NCBI GenBank assembly: GCA_000004985.1 | Contig: GG738997.1 | Direction: 5' to 3' (one strand) | Source of the DNA: Naegleria gruberi | Lineage: Eukaryota | DNA: 13,269 nucleotides | Shown here: one piece after another, positions 3,123-13,269 of the stretch | Position numbering within the stretch: position 1 is the stretch's first letter | How the letters are laid out: the number at the start of each line of letters is the position of its first letter | The notes under the pieces: model-generated | What the model saw: the letters and a program-made list of their open reading frames with translations, nothing else | The model's database searches: none | Told to the model about the DNA's origin: nothing | Translations under genes and position numbers: made by a program

Positions 3123-3126
<4 letters not shown>

Positions 3127-3164
<38 letters not shown>
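3127..3164. repeat. (AT)19 microsatellite in the spacer between the 2395..3116 ORFs and the 3' end of the minus-strand gene
   Basis: Direct reading of the sequence. Confidence 0.95.
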
Positions 3165-4176: not shown

Positions 4177-4216
<40 letters not shown>

Positions 4217-5151: not shown

Positions 5152-5186
<35 letters not shown>

Positions 5187-5347: not shown

Positions 5348-5823
5348 ATGCCAAAATCACCTTCAGCAAAAACAAACAAACCAACAAGCCCAAATCTTAC
5401 AAAACCACAACCTCCATTCAAGAGACAAGCAATTCCGTTGCCGGAAAACATTGAACTTTTAAGTTGGAAGAGAGGAATTAATTCAAACAATTATATTTCT
5501 AACGGTGATAATTTTTGGTCTTTCCGTTTTGAAGATGGTTTGTTAACATTAACAAACTATCCGATGAGAACTGATGATGACGACCATCAAGTGGTTGATA
5601 TTTCCGGTGGCAGTAAAGTCGTAGGTAAATTGATGACTGTTGCCCATGTTGCTACTGATCCTAAAAGTGTCAATCAGGTTATTGGAGTAACTGTATTGAC
5701 AAATAGTGGTGTTAAAAACTTGGTTTTGCGCTTTGGTGATCTTCTAACAAGTGAGTTTACAAAGGAGAGCGGATTTGACCGCTCCCACTGTAAGAGGGTT
5801 GATATTTTTGTAAGTAAGTATCG

Positions 5824-5858
<35 letters not shown>

Positions 5859-6494
5859 ATATATCTAGAACATTGGAATAGTTATTTAACAGAACAAATG
5901 CAAAATGAGGGTGATGACGAAGCATCTAAAGATAAGACAACCCCAAGCAGGGATAAAAAGTCAAATCCATCAATTTTTGATGATGAAGATGAGAATGAGG
6001 ATGATGGTGTTAGTAAACAACTCAACTTTACTCAAGAGGACGTTCAAGATTTTAATTCCTCTAAAGAAACACCATCAGTTTCGAAGCTTAAGATCAAGAA
6101 AAGTAAGTACTAACTTGTTTATGTTTGTGTTAACAATTTGCAGAACCAAGAGCTTCTCTTACTTCCTCTTCTTCCTACGTTGTAAAAGGTTCAATGTCAA
6201 CCTCTAAAATTGCCTCCATCATTGTACCTAAAACAGACACACCTACCAACAAGAAAGATTTAGAGCTTGGTAGGACTGGAGAAATAATCAAACAATTTGG
6301 TTTTCCTGCTAGTGTCTCCATTAAGGTAACAAGAATTAAAGTTCCAGAGTCATCCATAGCTGTTCGTGAAATCAGTTTAGAGCATGTAAAATCAATTGTT
6401 GATGAGATTAGAGGTGGTGGAAAAGCGTTGAGCTCCGAAGTTGGTTTGGTTGAGATGAAAGTCGCTCCAAACAGTTCTGCTTCAGGTATGTAGT

Positions 6495-6537
<43 letters not shown>

Positions 6538-6975
6538 CAGTGACTATCAAAAATCTTGTACAAAAGTTGAAAAGAGAGAATAGGGACGAAGATGCAATAA
6601 TGGAAGAATTGCAAGAATTAATTGAGAACGATGAAGAAAACATCGAACTGTTTGTGCATGGTAGTACTCATTATACCCTTGCATTAACAGCTGCTTTTCA
6701 ACAATTACCTCAGATTGAAAGGACATCTGAAAACACACCTAGACATGACTATGTAAGTTTATTAATAATTTCTTTTCTTATTGTATTAGTATGTTGTATT
6801 CAATATCCCAGATCATGAGTTATTGCAATTAGCAACAATGCACAATACAAACGTCAAACAATTAGCTATGGATTTCCCTTCAATACTTATTAACGTGAGA
6901 AGAACCTTAAAATTCTTTCTAACGAAATATCCTAACTCTGTAATGTACGTTAACTCAGATGGAATAGAAGGTAAG

Positions 6976-7006
<31 letters not shown>

Positions 7007-7710
7007 TTTTTCACAAATAATTTTTTCAGAGAGGAGACTTATTAGATTTGTGGAAGGAGGAGCAAAGCTTTTTAAAAGCGAAATAATTAAGGTATTTGGT
7101 CTCAATGAAAACTCAGCAATACACTATCAGACTCTATCATTTTGGTCTCATAGATGTTGGGATAGGCTTGTTGAAATTGCTAAAACTAAAAAGAAGAATA
7201 GTAATACTCCTTTACTTAAAAGTTTAGCTACTTTTATTACAAAGGTTGGTAGTTGCAAAGGTATTCCTGAAGAAGAGATATATTATTCGCTTGAGCAATT
7301 CTTGAATTTTGGTAACATTCAAAGTATGGTTAATCATATCAATCATACCAAGTGTGTATTATTTGGATTTAGCGAAATTACAAAGTATTTTTCTGAAATA
7401 CCTGATTTAAAAGGAATGGCAAAGAGACTTCCAAACATTTACAAAGCATTAGTTAGTGATTCAATGCACGACTCAGAATTGAAACAAGTAGAAGAAAAAA
7501 CATTGTCATTCACTTCCACCGACTTGTACTTAAATATTAGAAGAGAGTTAAGTGGAAACCCTAAAACTTCTTCGACTACAGATGTATCATTTCCAGTTGT
7601 GACAGAACAGTTGAAAGTAGAACGAAATGGTTATTCGGCAATATTATTATATGGAGATGTTTTGGAGTTAGCAAACATCTTTCCAAAGAAAGTATCGTAT
7701 GGTAAGTTTT

Positions 7711-7748
<38 letters not shown>

Positions 7749-8635
7749 CAAATGTAGATTTAATGATTTGCGATTTGCCATATGGTGTTTTTAAAGATTC
7801 CCCTTATGATGTCTTATTTACTGATGACCAATTGAAAGAGTTTATTGACAATTTATACCAAATCACTCCAGACACGAATTTTCCAACTTGGATCTTCTTT
7901 GGGGAGTATAAGCAAATTGTAAAGCTTCAAGAATTAATTGAACTAAAGAAAGGCAATGCAGTTATATGTATTTGGGTGAAAAATGGTCGTCAATTTGGTG
8001 CAAACTTTGGTACGTATAAGTATGAAAGCTTCCTTCTTTGCTTCCCCAACAAGCAAGTGAATATCAAGCCACAGGGTTTCAGTTTATCACCATTCAGTAT
8101 TTGCTTTCCATCAGAGACTAACTTTTTGAAAGACTCCAACTCAAGAGAGTGTAACAAGGGTCAGAAGCCTCTTTCTTTAATTTCGTGGCTTGTTTATCAA
8201 TTTTCCAACGTTGACGGTATTGTTCTTGATTTATGTTCGGGAACTGCCACCACAGCAGTAGCTGCAGTTAGTTATGGTAGAAATTCGATCAGTTTAGAAA
8301 GTAATCATGGCCAATTCGAACACGCTGCAGAACGACTCAAATTATCAGAATTTGAGAAGGTAAATTTTGAACCCTTAGTTGTTTGTACAGTATCTGAAGA
8401 CAAGGAAAAAAAGGAAAAAAAGAAATCTACAAAAAGAAAAACAGCACCCACCAAGAAAACACCGAAAAAAGCAAGCAAAAAGAAAAAAACTGAAACACCT
8501 TTAAAGGGAAGTAAAATGCAATCGAAAAAGGCAGAGGAAATTGCGATGAAATACATAGACAGCGAAGCAGTAGAAATGGCATCTGATGAAGAGAATGTCA
8601 GCGAAAAAGATGAGGAAGAAGATGATGAAGAATAG
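5348..8635 (+). CDS. Seven-exon gene encoding a ~994-aa protein. Its C-terminal third is a beta-class (motif IV then motif I) N6-adenine/N4-cytosine-type DNA amino-methyltransferase domain (N6_N4_Mtase fold), followed by a Lys-rich basic tail and an acidic tail. CDS join(5348..5813, 5869..6102, 6144..6485, 6541..6752, 6790..6970, 7030..7701, 7758..8635).
   Basis: Every junction is GT-AG and phase-consistent, and the exons sum to 2985 nt (995 codons). The first intron's acceptor is ambiguous (5868 or 5892), and both options stay in frame. The 37-nt intron 6753..6789 is forced, because an in-frame TAG sits immediately before the exon-5 start. MTase motifs: LLYGDVLELANIFPKKVSY|D|LMICDLPYG (compare GDxLExLxxLPxxSVDLIxTDPPY), GQKPLSLISWLVYQFSNVDGIVLDLCSGTATTAVAAVSYGRNSISLE (compare TQKPxxLxxRLIxxxSxxGDxVLDPFxGSGTTxxAAxxLGRxxIGIE), and HGQFEHAAERLK. 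Tail: KEKKEKKKSTKRKTAPTKKTPKKASKKKKTETPLKGSKMQSKK ... SDEENVSEKDEEEDDEE-stop. Confidence 0.85.
5827..5854. repeat. (AT)14 in intron 1 of the methyltransferase gene
   Basis: Direct reading. Confidence 0.95.
6498..6529. repeat. (AT)16 in intron 3 of the methyltransferase gene
   Basis: Direct reading. Confidence 0.95.
6981..7006. repeat. (AT)13 in intron 5 of the methyltransferase gene
   Basis: Direct reading. Confidence 0.95.
7714..7745. repeat. (AT)16 in intron 6 of the methyltransferase gene. This intron interrupts the MTase catalytic domain.
   Basis: Direct reading. Confidence 0.95.
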
Positions 8636-8649
8636 AGGGAAATGATATT

Positions 8650-8655
8650 AATAAA
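8650..8655 (+). terminator. AATAAA hexamer 15 nt after the TAG stop of the methyltransferase gene. Candidate polyadenylation signal.
   Basis: Motif presence only. AT-rich genomes contain many chance AATAAA hexamers. Confidence 0.3.

Positions 8656-8678: not shown

Positions 8679-8708
<30 letters not shown>
8679..8708. repeat. (AT)15 microsatellite downstream of the methyltransferase gene
   Basis: Direct reading. Confidence 0.95.
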
Positions 8709-9120: not shown

Positions 9121-9378
9121 ACAATTTCACTTCTGCTTTCATTCGAATTTCCGAATTTTCCTGTTTTTCCGTTAAGTCGGACACAGCTCATTGATTGAAA
9201 CAGAATTGCAATTTCTTGAGAGAATGATGACCTTTCAACTCGGAGTTTTCTCGTTTACCCGCAACGATAAAATCCTTAAAAAAATTTTTACGCAAAAAAA
9301 AACGTTTTTAACCTTTCTGTGCGATTTCTGCGTTCATCAAAAAGACACCACAAAAAACACAAGAAGGGACAAAAAACT

Positions 9379-11920
9379 ATGAAGCCTTTAGCTGTGATGG
9401 TGAAAGTGGAGCCTGGGCAACAACAACAATCGCCATCCACTCCATCCACACCAACCAATTCCTCCTCCACCAATAATACCACAAATAATTCTCATATTGC
9501 TTCTAGTGGTCACCATCATCATGTGGGTAATAATCATAATCATCAGCACAATAATTTAATCATGATGAATCCGAGTTCATCAATTTACCCTTCCTGTTTG
9601 CCTCTTGCTATGAAGAGCAATTCTTCCTCTTTTATTCCTTCCCAGACACCTCCACCTCCACATCAACAAGGATTCAGTCTTCCTTCCATTCATAATTTGA
9701 CTTCACAACAACCATCTTCAAAAGTCATGGTGGATCACATTCATCACTATCAACAACAACATCCACAATCGTGGCGTGGTAATAATATGGAACCAAAACC
9801 ACCTCTTCATAGTAATGGTGGTCATGATTTGATGGAAGCCTTGTCAGCACAACCACAAACTATTGTAAGATATGCACCTCCTCTTTATCAAGCCATTATT
9901 CAACCAAGTATTGATATTGTTCCTATGGATAGTTTTATTCCTGGCTATATATCTGGATACAGAAAGACTCCACAGCAAGTAACAATTGGGACAAGTCCTG
10001 AAATGCAACCATCATCTAATCCTTCCTCTTCCACAACAACTGGAATTATTGTCACAAACAGTCCTACCATGACACCAGTTAAGGTTTCTCACTGTATTGC
10101 TGACCAAGAGTTGGTAAAGACAACACAATCAGTAATAGTGGCCTCCTCATCCGCCCAACAAGCCCCTTCATCCAATAACACCCAAACCCAACAACCACCC
10201 ACAGATCCAAGTCAAGCCAGAATGGCATGTATAAATTGTAGAAAATCACATCGTAAATGGTAAGTATTTTCAATGTATTAGGCAGGTTGTTATTGACTCT
10301 AATTTAGTGGTAAGTATTTGTAGAGATTACAGTAAAATTTACAGACCCCATTTTAAAGATAAGGGAATGCCTTGTGGTGAATGTAAAAAGAGAGGAATAC
10401 CTGATGAATGTGTTTATTATGAACCTAAGAAGAGAGGACCAAAGATGAAGACAGCTGAAGAGGAAGCTCAAAGTAAGGAGGAAGCAAAGAAAAGAAAGGT
10501 CTCTAAGAAGAATGAGGTTCCCTCTGCAACAGTAGTAGATTTGGAAAGGACCAATCTATTGCAGTCTAACTCTCAGATAATTGCCTCCAGCAGCTCCAAT
10601 GCAGCAACTACCACACCAGTAATCCCAGCCCTCTTCTCTAGAAAGGAAATTGATAGAAGAAATTACATTTTACACATGATCTTCCCTGAAGCAAACCTCC
10701 CTAATGATATTAAGGAAAACTGTCCAGATGATAGCTTTAACGAAATGTTTCGTCTCTTTTTATCAGATGAATTCGTTAGCTTTTTGGTTGAGTGTATGGA
10801 TGGTAATAAGAGTAAGAATCAATTGATGCCTTTCATTAGAGAAAAGGTTCTCCTCTCTATTCTCAATAGAATTATGGAACCATACTACCACGGCATGTAT
10901 TTTTCCCTAGAGTCTCTCTTTTTGAAATACTATTGTCTATTCAAGCTCTCCCCACATGATGATAATAGACCAATCTTATTGTTAGAAAGTGAGAAGAGTG
11001 TAAAGCAAAATAAGAAGGATTTCAATATTATCACCAATGACATACAGACTATAATTTGTAATCTGTGGAGTTCCTTCTTTAATACCATCCTCGAATTCAA
11101 GAGTGTGAATTCATCCTACAATCAACTCGTCATTAAGAATATGCTTGATCTAATTGTGAACAAGTTATCAGAGAATGTTGATATTCAAAGTGTATTGGAG
11201 TTACAACATGCTCTATTTACCAGATACTTGTTGCTCATTGAAATCCATCAACAGATTGAGGGATGTACAACCAATAGTGTACAGTTCAAGAAATTGGTGT
11301 TCAACTTTCTCAAGCTTACTTACCTCTCTGGAATCACTACGAAATCAGCAAAACTTGTCGATCAATTTGAAAAGTTTAACACGAAATTCTTTGCCATTCT
11401 CACTAGTCAGTACAGCTCCATGTCACTGAATACCAACTATGTTATGGCAGAAATGGAATGCTTTATTCCAAGAAACTTGACAGAATGTTTGACCTTCTTG
11501 AGCGTTATCACATCAGAAGGGGAGCAAGATTTGGAAGTTCTCTTCTTGGAGTACATGTCCAAGTTGTTGAACTTGAGTATTTACATGCAAGGTATTCTCA
11601 ACACTAACGATAAGAATCTTCAAGAAATGAATGCAAGCGTTGGGAAAGATTTCTTCCACATAGCCAAGAACCTCAAATCTCCAATTATTCTTTCAATCCT
11701 CAATTCCCTGCAGAATTATCTCATTACCTCCTTTTTTGAAAATACTATATCTATTCCAGAGTCTCCACAATTGGAAAATCAATTTAAGGAACGTATTTTA
11801 ACTAGTGCCAGTCAATTTGAACATCAAGATCATTTCTACTTGAGAGCAAGTAATTCTCTAATTCGAGGAAAAGATTTGTCAGAGATGCGGAAAGAGTCAA
11901 AGAAAGTATTTATAAAATAA
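9379..11920 (+). CDS. Zn(II)2Cys6 (fungal-type binuclear zinc cluster) transcription factor, about 822 aa, two exons. CDS join(9379..10259, 10333..11920). A low-complexity Q/H/N/S/P-rich N-terminal region of about 280 aa precedes the zinc cluster. A basic linker and a large C-terminal region follow it.
   Basis: The ATG at 9379 sits in an A-rich context (aaaaaact ATG). Exon 1 ends ...ACINCRKSHRK + tg. The intron has a gtaagt donor and a ttacag acceptor at 10331-10332. The splice restores TGT (Cys), giving ACINCRKSHRK-C-KIYRPHFKDKGMP-CGEC-KKRGIPDE-C, which is CX2CX6CX13CX2CX8C. The two exons sum to 2469 nt (823 codons). The spacing is within the known Zn2Cys6 range. The C-terminal domain was not matched to a named family. 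Confidence 0.75.
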
Positions 11921-11930
11921 TCTTGTAATA

Positions 11931-13269
11931 TTATTTACCATAGTATGGGATTGTGTTCTTCTTTCTGGAGAACCAAACATTTCTCTTACCAGTCTTGCCC
12001 AAGTATGCAGTGATTGCTTCAACTGAAACTTCGCTTCCTCTAAAGATTTTTGGTGTGGATGATTTGAAAAAGAGTCCTGAAATTCCTGAGCTATCTTCTA
12101 AAACAACAACCTTATCATAGTATGCATTCAAAATGTAACGAATGGGCACAGCATCGTCTGCTGTCAATTCAGTAATAATGTGATCAATCATAAAGGAGAG
12201 TGTTCTCAAACCACCAGCAAAGACATCATCTGACTTTTTAGAAATATCAACCTTTAGCAAATTGATATGAATATCTGCCGAGAAGTAGTCCTCATCGAGT
12301 GAGATGGTTTCAACAGATCCTGGAGTCTTACTTTCAGTTTCCTCATCTGCAGTAACAACATTTGTAAGATCAGCATTGTACTTGGTTGAGTATTGAATAT
12401 ATTTTCTGGCATCTCTGAAAACAGCCAAGTTTTTAACTGAAACCAATTTGTCAACATCATTTAGAGATGCAGAACTCTTAATCACTTCCACCATTTTTGG
12501 TTGAATTTCATACGAGATAACTTTACAACCCAACAGTGCAGGATAAATTGAATAAAATCCCAAATGAGAACCAACATCAACAATGAGACACTTCTTTCCA
12601 GTTATTTTTGAATCTCTTTGGAATTTCTCAATTAACATTTTGAATAGTTCTTCAGTTGCTGATTCCCAATTGCCATATCTAACCATGTGCTTTGAAAATC
12701 CAGTATCTCTAGCAGGATTCAACACTCTCATATAAAAGGATGGATTGGTATTTGTTTTTACAATATACCCAACAAGTCTATTATCATCTCTAACCAATGG
12801 AATCAAACCCTTTGGTTTGTTAGATTGTACAGCAATTAAAATCATAAATATCAATCCAATAACTGCCAATACAGAAATAATCAAATTCCTTGAAGGCAAC
12901 TTGTCCAAAAATGTTAAATATTTCGCTTTAATTCCACACATTCTCAATAAATTTCTAAATATTCTCGGAATGAAAGAAAAGATACTTCCAAGCCTTCTCA
13001 TCCAAACACCAGAAAAAGCCTTCACCGATTTTTCTCCCAAAATATTACTTTCATGATTTAATATTAATGGGAGTTGTTGATTTAAAGTACTACCACCACC
13101 ACCACTAGTAGCCATCTCCTCATCCTTTGATGGTGGCGATCGGGAAATTATATTAGATGAAACTGTTGTTGTTGTATTGGATCGGTTAAAGTTAGTCATG
13201 ATTGGTGCGAGTTCATCATCATCGGAATTATTTATTCTGATCAAAGATGACGACAATGAAGAATCATTA
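11931..13269 (-). CDS. FkbM-family (Methyltransf_21) SAM-dependent methyltransferase with a predicted N-terminal transmembrane anchor (LIISVLAVIGLIFMILIAV). It is 5'-partial: the reading frame stays open to the right edge of the window and the reported TTG start is not the true start.
   Basis: Motifs: KKCLIVDVGSHLGFYSIYPALLGCKVISYEIQPKMVEVI (compare vfDvGAniG..slyfa..ga.rviafEP of FkbM), and INLLKVDISKKSDDVFAGGLRTL (compare idllKiDvEGaE). Single exon over 441+ codons. Stop codon TAA at 11933..11931. Confidence 0.8.
   Translation of the reverse strand, partial: NDSSLSSSLIRINNSDDDELAPIMTNFNRSNTTTTVSSNIISRSPPSKDEEMATSGGGGSTLNQQLPLILNHESNILGEKSVKAFSGVWMRRLGSIFSFIPRIFRNLLRMCGIKAKYLTFLDKLPSRNLIISVLAVIGLIFMILIAVQSNKPKGLIPLVRDDNRLVGYIVKTNTNPSFYMRVLNPARDTGFSKHMVRYGNWESATEELFKMLIEKFQRDSKITGKKCLIVDVGSHLGFYSIYPALLGCKVISYEIQPKMVEVIKSSASLNDVDKLVSVKNLAVFRDARKYIQYSTKYNADLTNVVTADEETESKTPGSVETISLDEDYFSADIHINLLKVDISKKSDDVFAGGLRTLSFMIDHIITELTADDAVPIRYILNAYYDKVVVLEDSSGISGLFFKSSTPKIFRGSEVSVEAITAYLGKTGKRNVWFSRKKNTIPYYGK

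Follow-up and report, generated by a model that had tools for sequence, protein, structure and literature searches.

A 13,269-bp window, the whole stretch of DNA analysed here and a complete small scaffold of Naegleria gruberi, carries the gene NAEGRDRAFT_76461, which encodes a predicted bacterial-type DNA adenine methyltransferase (MTase) with a charged tail at its C-terminus. The tail is confirmed as real and is translated in frame as an extension of the MTase. Charged extensions are a family-level property of the eukaryote-like clade of homologues and not of the bacterial-type relatives. We consider it somewhat probable that the tail is a eukaryote-type, charged and disordered appendage for nuclear import and electrostatic tethering to DNA or chromatin. 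For a eukaryotic enzyme, an addition of this sort is ordinary.

The tail is an in-frame extension of the methyltransferase domain

Translation of positions 7757-8635 gives a single open frame, which runs from DLMICDLPYG through motif I, the last helix and the strand PLVVCTV into the tail and ends at TAG. The features of the domain and the tail are as follows.

7630..8392 (start approximate), + strand: predicted beta-class N6-adenine DNA MTase domain, split by the intron at 7702-7757, motif IV then motif I
7772..7783, + strand: motif IV, DLPY, catalytic, Asp first
8222..8254, + strand: motif I, VLDLCSGTATT, the S-adenosylmethionine-binding loop, second Gly replaced by Ala
8306-8344, + strand: last helix, HGQFEHAAERLKL, H228-240 in the secondary structure of the 336-residue AlphaFold2 (AF2) model
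8372-8392, + strand: last strand, PLVVCTV, E252-254 in the AF2 model, end of the domain
8396..8530, + strand: basic block, EDKEKKEKKKSTKRKTAPTKKTPKKASKKKKTETPLKGSKMQSKK, 45 amino acids (aa), 20 K and 1 R, net charge +16
8459-8470 and 8495-8506, + strand: (S/T)PxK sites TPKK and TPLK, which match the SPKK-type minor-groove motif and the cyclin-dependent kinase (CDK) consensus
8477..8489, + strand: poly(A) track within the coding sequence, AAAAAGAAAAAAA, with A at 12 of 13 nt, encodes KKKK, the sole such window in the gene
8531..8632, + strand: acidic block, AEEIAMKYIDSEAVEMASDEENVSEKDEEEDDEE, 34 aa, 17 D/E, net charge -15
8552..8569, + strand: YIDSEA, candidate short linear motif within the acidic block
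8633-8635, + strand: stop codon TAG
8650-8655, + strand: AATAAA, 15 bp past the stop codon, sole copy between 8300 and 8800

The tail shares the last exon and the reading frame of the MTase domain, and the public protein model (P0001) has an identical tail. It begins three residues beyond the last strand of the AF2 model. The initial annotation of this DNA had described a tail appended to the MTase domain and had named a stop ahead of it in the transcript as grounds for abandoning the idea. The tail does begin directly after the last core strand, and neither a stop codon nor a credible intron separates it from the domain. The same annotation had proposed about 45 residues of more than 50% lysine, followed by a D/E-rich end. 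Both blocks are present, but lysine makes up 44% of the basic block (20/45; K and R together 47%). The sole stretch of the block above 50% is a 29-residue core, KEKKEKKKSTKRKTAPTKKTPKKASKKKK, with 16/29 lysines, or 55%, as counted from the sequence.

The lysine content of the tail is exceptional within both the protein and the scaffold. Outside the tail, lysine accounts for 8.4% of residues, with no more than 10 lysines in the best 45-residue window. When the whole protein was shuffled 20,000 times, no shuffle produced a window with 20 lysines, and the maximum was 17. Across the six frames of the scaffold, the basic block is the sole stop-free window of 45 codons with at least 14 lysines. The two kinds of charge are also strongly segregated: kappa is 0.36 for the tail, whereas 300 shuffled versions average 0.14 and reach 0.31 at most.

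Predicted disorder and short motifs

The tail is predicted to be intrinsically disordered. Its predicted local distance difference test (pLDDT) score in the AF2 model falls from about 64 at the start to about 40, with short low-confidence helices only, and lies at 40-58 in the acidic block. A 103-residue query that starts at the last helix (AAERLK) and ends with the C-terminus had no Pfam match at E<=1, Linker_histone and HMG14_17 included, and Pfam found no H1 winged-helix globular domain (Linker_histone) in the whole protein. Direct reading of the tail revealed neither an RRSARLSA-type HMGN core nor the RGRP core of an AT-hook. The tail had been called H1/HMGN-like, a label that has to be divided. 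The likeness to H1 stands for composition, as a lysine-rich disordered segment with two (S/T)PxK sites, albeit one of 45 aa with 2/45 Ala. Homology to H1 or HMGN finds no support in the Pfam search, and the HMGN part of the label is unsupported, given the absence of the core motif and of an HMG14_17 match.

Signals for nuclear import were sought by scanning all 994 aa of the protein with PSORT-style rules, which yields rule-based matches only. Four overlapping bipartite patterns of the nuclear localisation signal (NLS) type span aa 923-945, and all of the protein's bipartite patterns lie in the tail. Monopartite patterns in the basic block are KKEK and KKKK. These matches agree with the NLS resemblance noted in the initial annotation. 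Of the protein's two patterns of four basic residues (pat4), KKKK belongs to the tail and KKKP lies at aa 232; a pat7 pattern (proline then a basic cluster), PSRDKKS at aa 181, is likewise outside the tail. Eukaryote-type additions are not limited to the tail: disordered stretches of both acidic and basic kind, KIKKKPR among them, occur at the N-terminus as well. Within the acidic block lie two sites of the casein kinase 2 (CK2) type, SDEE and SEKD.

Charged extensions among homologues

A HMMER search of 1.84 billion cluster representatives produced 801 matches at E<=0.001. Below 1e-30 there were only the gene itself and one further protein, P0002; the next match was P0003 at E=1.5e-21. Both come from metagenome contigs, with identities of 34% for P0002 and 35% for P0003; the MTase domain encoded on the P0003 contig is about 30-35% identical to that of N. 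gruberi. Their called open reading frames (ORFs) begin at an exon boundary that matches the start of the N. gruberi last exon. In the AT-rich metagenome contig that encodes P0003 (L001), a phase-1 intron at ~845-909 interrupts the gene five codons ahead of DLPY, in the same position as the intron at 7702-7757. The shared intron must therefore be older than the divergence of the two genes. From these gene structures, P0002 and P0003 appear to be eukaryotic relatives in a family with a long eukaryotic history.

Both of these nearest relatives have K-rich tails. The end of P0002 includes the stretches MKKRKKEKKEAVNVEEKRKRKKKKKGDEGSQYIDSEAADSST and ..GSQYIDSEAADSST; it shares an identical YIDSEA with N. 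gruberi, and the rest of the tail is unalignable. Related forms of the hexapeptide are FIDDSQ in P0024 and FIDDSE in P0016.

Matches that extend to the end of the domain were sorted by the motif before QKP into bacterial-type (H.TQKP) and eukaryote-like (N..QKP) homologues, classes to which no taxonomy is attached. The bacterial-type homologues (n=91) extend past the domain by a median of 2 residues, which agrees with the earlier claim that such tails are absent from bacterial MTases. The median extension in the eukaryote-like homologues (n=36, fragments included) is 69 residues, and 24/36 have more than 40. Together with the K-rich tails of both nearest homologues, this weakens, for the homologues covered here, the concern that orthologues might lack the tail. 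Many eukaryote-like extensions have windows dense in K/R and in D/E, and dense charged stretches include RRSPKAAGKSPKAAGKKK in P0013, KKTPKKSKDDAKKTPRKSRAK in P0016 and TPAKATPAKKMKK in P0005. The presence of K/R-dense tails in homologues of very different composition argues against a pure effect of AT bias.

Short motifs recur in the eukaryote-like tails, as judged by tests that rest on 24 tails and on motifs chosen after seeing the data, so that P values are optimistic: (S/T)Px(K/R) occurred 9 times against 3.7 expected from shuffles (P about 0.009), K(K/R)x(K/R) 26 times against 7.3, and [FY][IV][DE][DS] 4 times against 0.3. CK2-type sites were not enriched (80 observed, 75 expected). Other C-termini are rich in cysteine. 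In at least seven eukaryote-like members the extension contains CxxC at least twice, in some cases spaced like the C4HC3 of a PHD finger, and zinc-finger-like Cys-rich C-termini were seen in P0007, P0015, P0016, P0021, P0034, P0057, P0074, P0140 and P0156. Their Pfam scores are sub-threshold, for example PHD_NSD at E=0.009 and C1_2 at E=7e-5. These patterns suggest that the C-terminus is the family's place for putative targeting modules, in the form of K-rich tails or of zinc-finger-like, Cys-rich motifs.

Six homologues of 890-1104 aa (P0010, P0013, P0016, P0024, P0029 and P0153) can be aligned with the Naegleria protein over the whole length. They share a layout that runs from a charged disordered N-terminus through a conserved region with the signature TRxL..H/(I)GGNH(S/T)R and a helical part to the MTase, and closes with a charged extension at the C-terminus. 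One of them, P0016, is an intronless 1068-aa homologue found in identical form on four contigs, with a charged N-terminus, the MTase, a tail rich in TPKK/TPRK and a C-terminal Cys-rich finger. Three of its contigs (L002, L003 and L004) come from three different metagenome samples and have small flanking ORFs in common. This spread suggests either an organism of wide distribution or an element of mobile or viral nature.

Relatives from phages and plasmids are compact MTases. A relative in IMG/VR is a phage-type MTase without a tail, and its ORF ends directly after the last helix. Word-indexed protein searches with the full protein, the domain and the clade alignment returned little besides the gene itself and a few metagenome proteins. 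Two scans of metagenome contigs with alignments of the closest relatives gave no confirmed locus.

The catalytic domain

The catalytic domain is, by profile and predicted fold, a putative beta-class N6-adenine MTase of bacterial type. N6_N4_Mtase (PF01555) is the sole Pfam family on the whole protein, with E=4.7e-9 and 37 bits against a curated cut-off of 26.7, at aa 693-883 of our 984-aa model. Motif IV lies ahead of motif I, the permuted order of the beta class. A profile of 45 homologues matched DpnA/M1.HpyAVI, CcrM, MboIIA, M.BceJIV and RsrI at E values from 1e-40 to 1e-32. The best profile match in the PDB was 5hek (E=8e-40), and N4-cytosine enzymes were much weaker. The AF2 model, built on the 45-homologue alignment, has a pLDDT of 84-97 over most of the domain, with one internal loop lower. 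Foldseek placed CcrM (6pbd, E=9e-15) and M1.HpyAVI (E about 1e-12) in the top ranks.

Two variant motifs, DLPY and the GTA of motif I, could be taken for catalytic decay. This was ruled out, as both are common in bacterial-type homologues. DLPY is the commonest motif IV in bacterial-type homologues of ~250 aa and is therefore a family variant rather than a decayed DPPY. G-(S/T)-A variants of motif I recur in the homologues P0003, P0038 and P0043 and in bacterial-type relatives. The enzyme thus looks catalytically competent, judging from its motifs. According to a published rule, motif IV opening with Asp or Asn rather than Ser indicates adenine and not N4-cytosine as the target (PMC4738411). 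The Asp-first DLPY therefore predicts adenine specificity, and adenine MTases also outrank N4-cytosine MTases in the profile and fold matches.

Upstream of the MTase, aa ~300-470 of P0001 (window ~6250-6970; alignment columns 430-640) form a conserved region with the TRxL..H and (I)GGNH(S/T)R signature, the latter degenerated to HGSTHYT in N. gruberi. By eye this region resembles ParB/Srx, a likeness to which hhalign assigns a probability of 0.2. It has no ParBc match in Pfam. An AF2 model of this region has a mean pLDDT of 45, and the best related Foldseek match, sulfiredoxin 2rii, has an E value of only 1.7. Bacterial ParBc and MTase fusions occur among the distant matches of the homologue search.

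Gene model, scaffold and neighbouring genes

The gene has seven exons and six introns. The introns are 37-59 nt long and all GT..AG.

5348..8635, + strand: gene NAEGRDRAFT_76461, 994 aa, 7 exons, 6 introns
5348-5813, + strand: exon 1
5869-6102, + strand: exon 2
6144-6485, + strand: exon 3
6541-6752, + strand: exon 4
6790-6970, + strand: exon 5
7030-7701, + strand: exon 6
7758-8635, + strand: exon 7

Joining the exons manually gave an uninterrupted open frame, which was 984 aa long in our first model. A protein search matched this model over the full length, at 99% identity, to the 994-aa public entry P0001. The sole difference is the acceptor of intron 4, for which P0001 sets the start of exon 5 at 6790. 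The entry is listed as XP_002668621.1, EFC35877.1, NAEGRDRAFT_76461 and UniProt D2W4X4 and is annotated only as 'predicted protein'. An exact-sequence look-up of the last-exon ORF and of P0001 found no second contig, and a literature search by gene identifiers found no paper in the collection searched that names NAEGRDRAFT_76461.

Four of the six introns of the MTase gene (introns 1, 3, 5 and 6) contain near-perfect (TA)15-21 tracts, at 5827-5864, 6498-6529, 6976-7006 and 7714-7745. Further tracts of this kind lie at 3123-3164, at 4180-4213, at 5155-5186 just 5' of the start of the MTase gene and at 8679-8708 in its 3' flank. They look like a repeated (TA)n-bearing type of intron or spacer. 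On the contig of the relative P0003, short palindromes (GATATATATATC) occur within the corresponding intron and beyond the stop codon.

The scaffold starts with a 72-bp tandem repeat 5' of the MTase gene (9-562, 7.7 copies, 83% matches). Also upstream, an ORF at 1726-2370 on the - strand has a fragment of a DDE_Tnp_4 (Harbinger-type) transposase domain (E=1.4e-16). The MTase gene thus sits on a small and repeat-rich scaffold, and its neighbours resemble ordinary intron-bearing host genes. The downstream gene (9319-11920, + strand) apparently encodes a Zn2Cys6-like binuclear-cluster protein, with the pattern C-x2-C-x6-C-x13-C-x2-C-x8-C split by an intron near 10260-10332 and preceded by a long low-complexity N-terminus rich in Q/S/T/H. 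Pfam overlooked this motif because it is divided between two ORFs. At 11931-13256 on the - strand, a 441-aa ORF with a membrane anchor predicted by eye has a sub-threshold match to TRM5/TYW2-type methyltransferases (E=0.005) and is possibly an FkbM-like methyltransferase.

Proposed role of the tail and alternative explanations

The enzyme appears to be a laterally acquired bacterial-type MTase that has turned into a resident, intron-bearing gene of Naegleria. The initial annotation had suggested neofunctionalisation toward chromatin, a reading that the analysis does not support. The catalytic motifs are intact, and the tail would therefore retarget an active enzyme rather than replace its function; the enzyme looks retargeted, not repurposed. 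The basic block, with its net charge of +16 and its bipartite and monopartite patterns, would serve as the main NLS and promote nuclear import of an enzyme of ~113 kDa (mass estimated from 994 residues). With its TPKK and TPLK sites, it would probably also hold the enzyme on DNA or linker DNA through non-specific electrostatic and minor-groove-type contacts, much as the C-terminal domain of histone H1 acts, and such tethering could raise the local concentration of the enzyme on chromatin. The acidic block nearly cancels the basic charge and would probably fold back to temper non-specific DNA binding, or else bind basic partners, histones for example. As for YIDSEA, this conserved aromatic-acidic motif may be a docking point, and the CDK-type (TPxK) and CK2-type (SDEE, SEKD) sites could tune both blocks.

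Several observations weigh against a targeting role. The main rival explanation is neutral low-complexity growth, which would account for the DNA repeats and for tails that cannot be aligned. Replication slippage in an AT-rich genome would have lengthened a terminus where additions are tolerated, with at most incidental nuclear import. The basic block is 61% A, and micro-tandem repeats occur at 8402-8422 (AAGGAAAAA x2.3) and at 8603-8632 (a 12-mer x2.5), so slippage contributed to building the tail. The track at 8477 has 12 A in 13 nt; coding poly(A) tracks cause ribosome stalling or slippage in many eukaryotes. In our own reading of the sequence, an alternative frame of the same DNA is likewise K/R-rich. 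Tails are conserved in composition only, YIDSEA excepted, and cannot be aligned across the clade; block order varies among homologues, with about 14 basic-first and 10 acid-first, and P0003 has no acidic block. The post hoc choice of the enrichment motifs counts here too. The NLS-type KKKP at aa 232 lies in the N-terminal disordered region, so that the tail may be redundant for import. Neutral growth is nevertheless rather unlikely. Extensions occur systematically in the eukaryote-like clade but hardly at all in bacterial-type relatives, and K/R-rich patches recur in homologues of very different composition. The exact hexapeptide YIDSEA has been kept at a domain identity of 34%, and the charge segregation exceeds that of all 300 shuffles.

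The remaining alternatives are less probable. A specific nucleosome-binding module of the H1/HMGN kind, which would make the protein a chromatin architectural factor, is quite improbable. In its favour, TPKK and TPLK sit in a composition that resembles an H1 C-terminal domain, HMGN and HMGB proteins have an acidic end as well, and relatives have PHD-like fingers at the equivalent position. Against this stand the empty Pfam search, the absence of a winged-helix domain, of the RRSARLSA core and of the RGRP AT-hook, and the scarcity of Ala, which is typical of H1 tails; moreover, a typical H1 C-terminal domain is twice as long as these 45 residues. Alternating K-rich blocks and acidic blocks with CK2-type Ser could instead direct the protein to the nucleolus or to condensates, in the manner of nucleolin or NPM1. 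A strongly segregated polyampholyte (+16/-15, net near zero, kappa 0.36) with SDEE and SEKD would fit, but the protein has no RNA-binding or nucleolar domain, its fold is that of a DNA adenine MTase, and CK2-type sites in the clade's tails stay close to expectation, all of which makes this proposal highly improbable. An artefact of annotation or assembly, with the tail missing from the mature protein, or with a scaffold that does not represent a real, expressed locus of N. gruberi, is extremely improbable. It could draw on the small 13-kb scaffold with its repeats and transposase fragment, on the lack of a second contig and on a 2025 study that found no PF01555 match in the N. gruberi proteome that it used (PMC12344493). 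A GT..AG pair at 8360-8390 would give a 31-nt candidate intron, which was ruled out: none of the gene's introns is as short, its removal would shift the frame, and the homologues read through into similar tails. The seven exons with canonical splice sites form one uninterrupted frame of 994 aa, and the neighbours look like host genes.

Adenine methylation in Naegleria

The methylome of Naegleria has N6-methyladenine (6mA) at about 644 genes, attributed to the AMT1 system (PMC12695648). NAEGRDRAFT_76461 is a candidate writer of Naegleria 6mA beyond AMT1, which belongs to the MT-A70 family. XP_002668621.1 matches PF01555 above the gathering threshold, at odds with the 2025 study, a companion to the methylome work. 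Newer annotations or assemblies may lack the gene, or surveys of 6mA and N4-methylcytosine may have overlooked it. A bolder proposal, which we consider distinctly unlikely, is that the tail, TPxK and YIDSEA make up the chromatin-targeting arm of a second heterolobosean adenine-methylation system that is independent of AMT1. The enzyme would then belong to a largely unrecognised eukaryotic family of ~1000-aa proteins, with a charged disordered region, a ParB-like region, a beta-class MTase and a charged tail or PHD-like finger, and would deposit 6mA outside the ApT/AMT1 pattern described for Naegleria; recent surveys in which N. gruberi was reported to have no PF01555 gene would have missed it. 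The more interesting leads are the family-wide C-terminal targeting modules, the conserved YIDSEA and a possible contribution of this enzyme to adenine methylation, which current studies of Naegleria leave out of account.

Comparison with known systems

The closest published description is that of 'Clade 3' by Iyer, Zhang & Aravind (2016, BioEssays, PMC4738411). That paper describes Naegleria-restricted, circularly permuted group-1 N6-adenine MTases with an unusual strand-4 motif, and proposes an origin from counter-restriction MTases belonging to bacterial mobile elements of the type IV secretion system kind. NAEGRDRAFT_76461 is almost certainly a gene described there, judging from the shared host, the permuted order of motif IV before motif I, the strand-4 motif (here DLPY) and the putative bacterial or mobile-element ancestry. 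The text consulted makes no mention of the charged tail, the long N-terminal region or relatives outside Naegleria. To that account the present analysis adds about 24 eukaryote-like tailed relatives from environmental contigs. The nearest annotated prokaryotic matches are weak: orphan MTases of phages with 25-29% identity over the domain, and orphan MTases of non-mobilizable plasmids with 36-39% identity over about 40% of the domain. ParB-N6_N4_Mtase fusions are known from phages and plasmids (PMC12704722). The upstream signature of the long relatives is ParB/Srx-like by eye, and neither profile nor fold comparison gave a significant match.

Among fold and profile matches, the Naegleria catalytic domain comes closest to CcrM (PDB 6pbd), M1.HpyAVI, M.BceJIV, MboIIA and RsrI. 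CcrM has a folded C-terminal extension that binds DNA non-specifically and is needed for activity. It is a precedent for a DNA-tethering appendage at the same end of the fold. The appendage of CcrM is a folded domain, whereas the Naegleria tail is predicted to be disordered, K-rich and then acidic, of low complexity and with NLS-type patterns. The C-terminal domain of histone H1 is similar in its lysine content (~44%), its interspersed T/S/P, two (S/T)PxK sites and predicted disorder, but the Naegleria tail has no globular domain or Pfam match, is poor in Ala, has half the length and is followed by an acidic block. The tail thus plausibly resembles H1 in a possible mode of action, not in family membership. 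The acidic tails of HMGB and HMGN proteins likewise adjoin a basic segment and might suggest an intramolecular brake, although the Naegleria tail has no HMG box, HMGN core or sequence similarity to them.

A parallel in a eukaryote is N4CMT of bdelloid rotifers, in which a bacterial N4-cytosine MTase carries a C-terminal chromodomain (PMC8885841; PDB 8s9m-o). Like the Naegleria enzyme as interpreted here, it is a laterally acquired beta-class amino-MTase whose C-terminal chromatin-targeting appendage was gained in a eukaryote, and the catalytic domain of N4CMT is a significant Foldseek match at ranks 22-24. N4CMT is cytosine-specific and its appendage is a folded reader of histone methylation, whereas the Naegleria enzyme has an Asp-first motif IV that predicts adenine, and a disordered tail with no homology to reader domains. 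On repeated occasions, laterally acquired bacterial DNA MTases have turned into epigenetic writers of eukaryotes after gaining a chromatin-targeting appendage, as in the rotifer. Fungal adenine MTases with AT-hooks or PHD fingers are a further example of targeted writers. The Naegleria enzyme would represent the simplest such route, a charged disordered tail with NLS-type patterns on an intact catalytic core.

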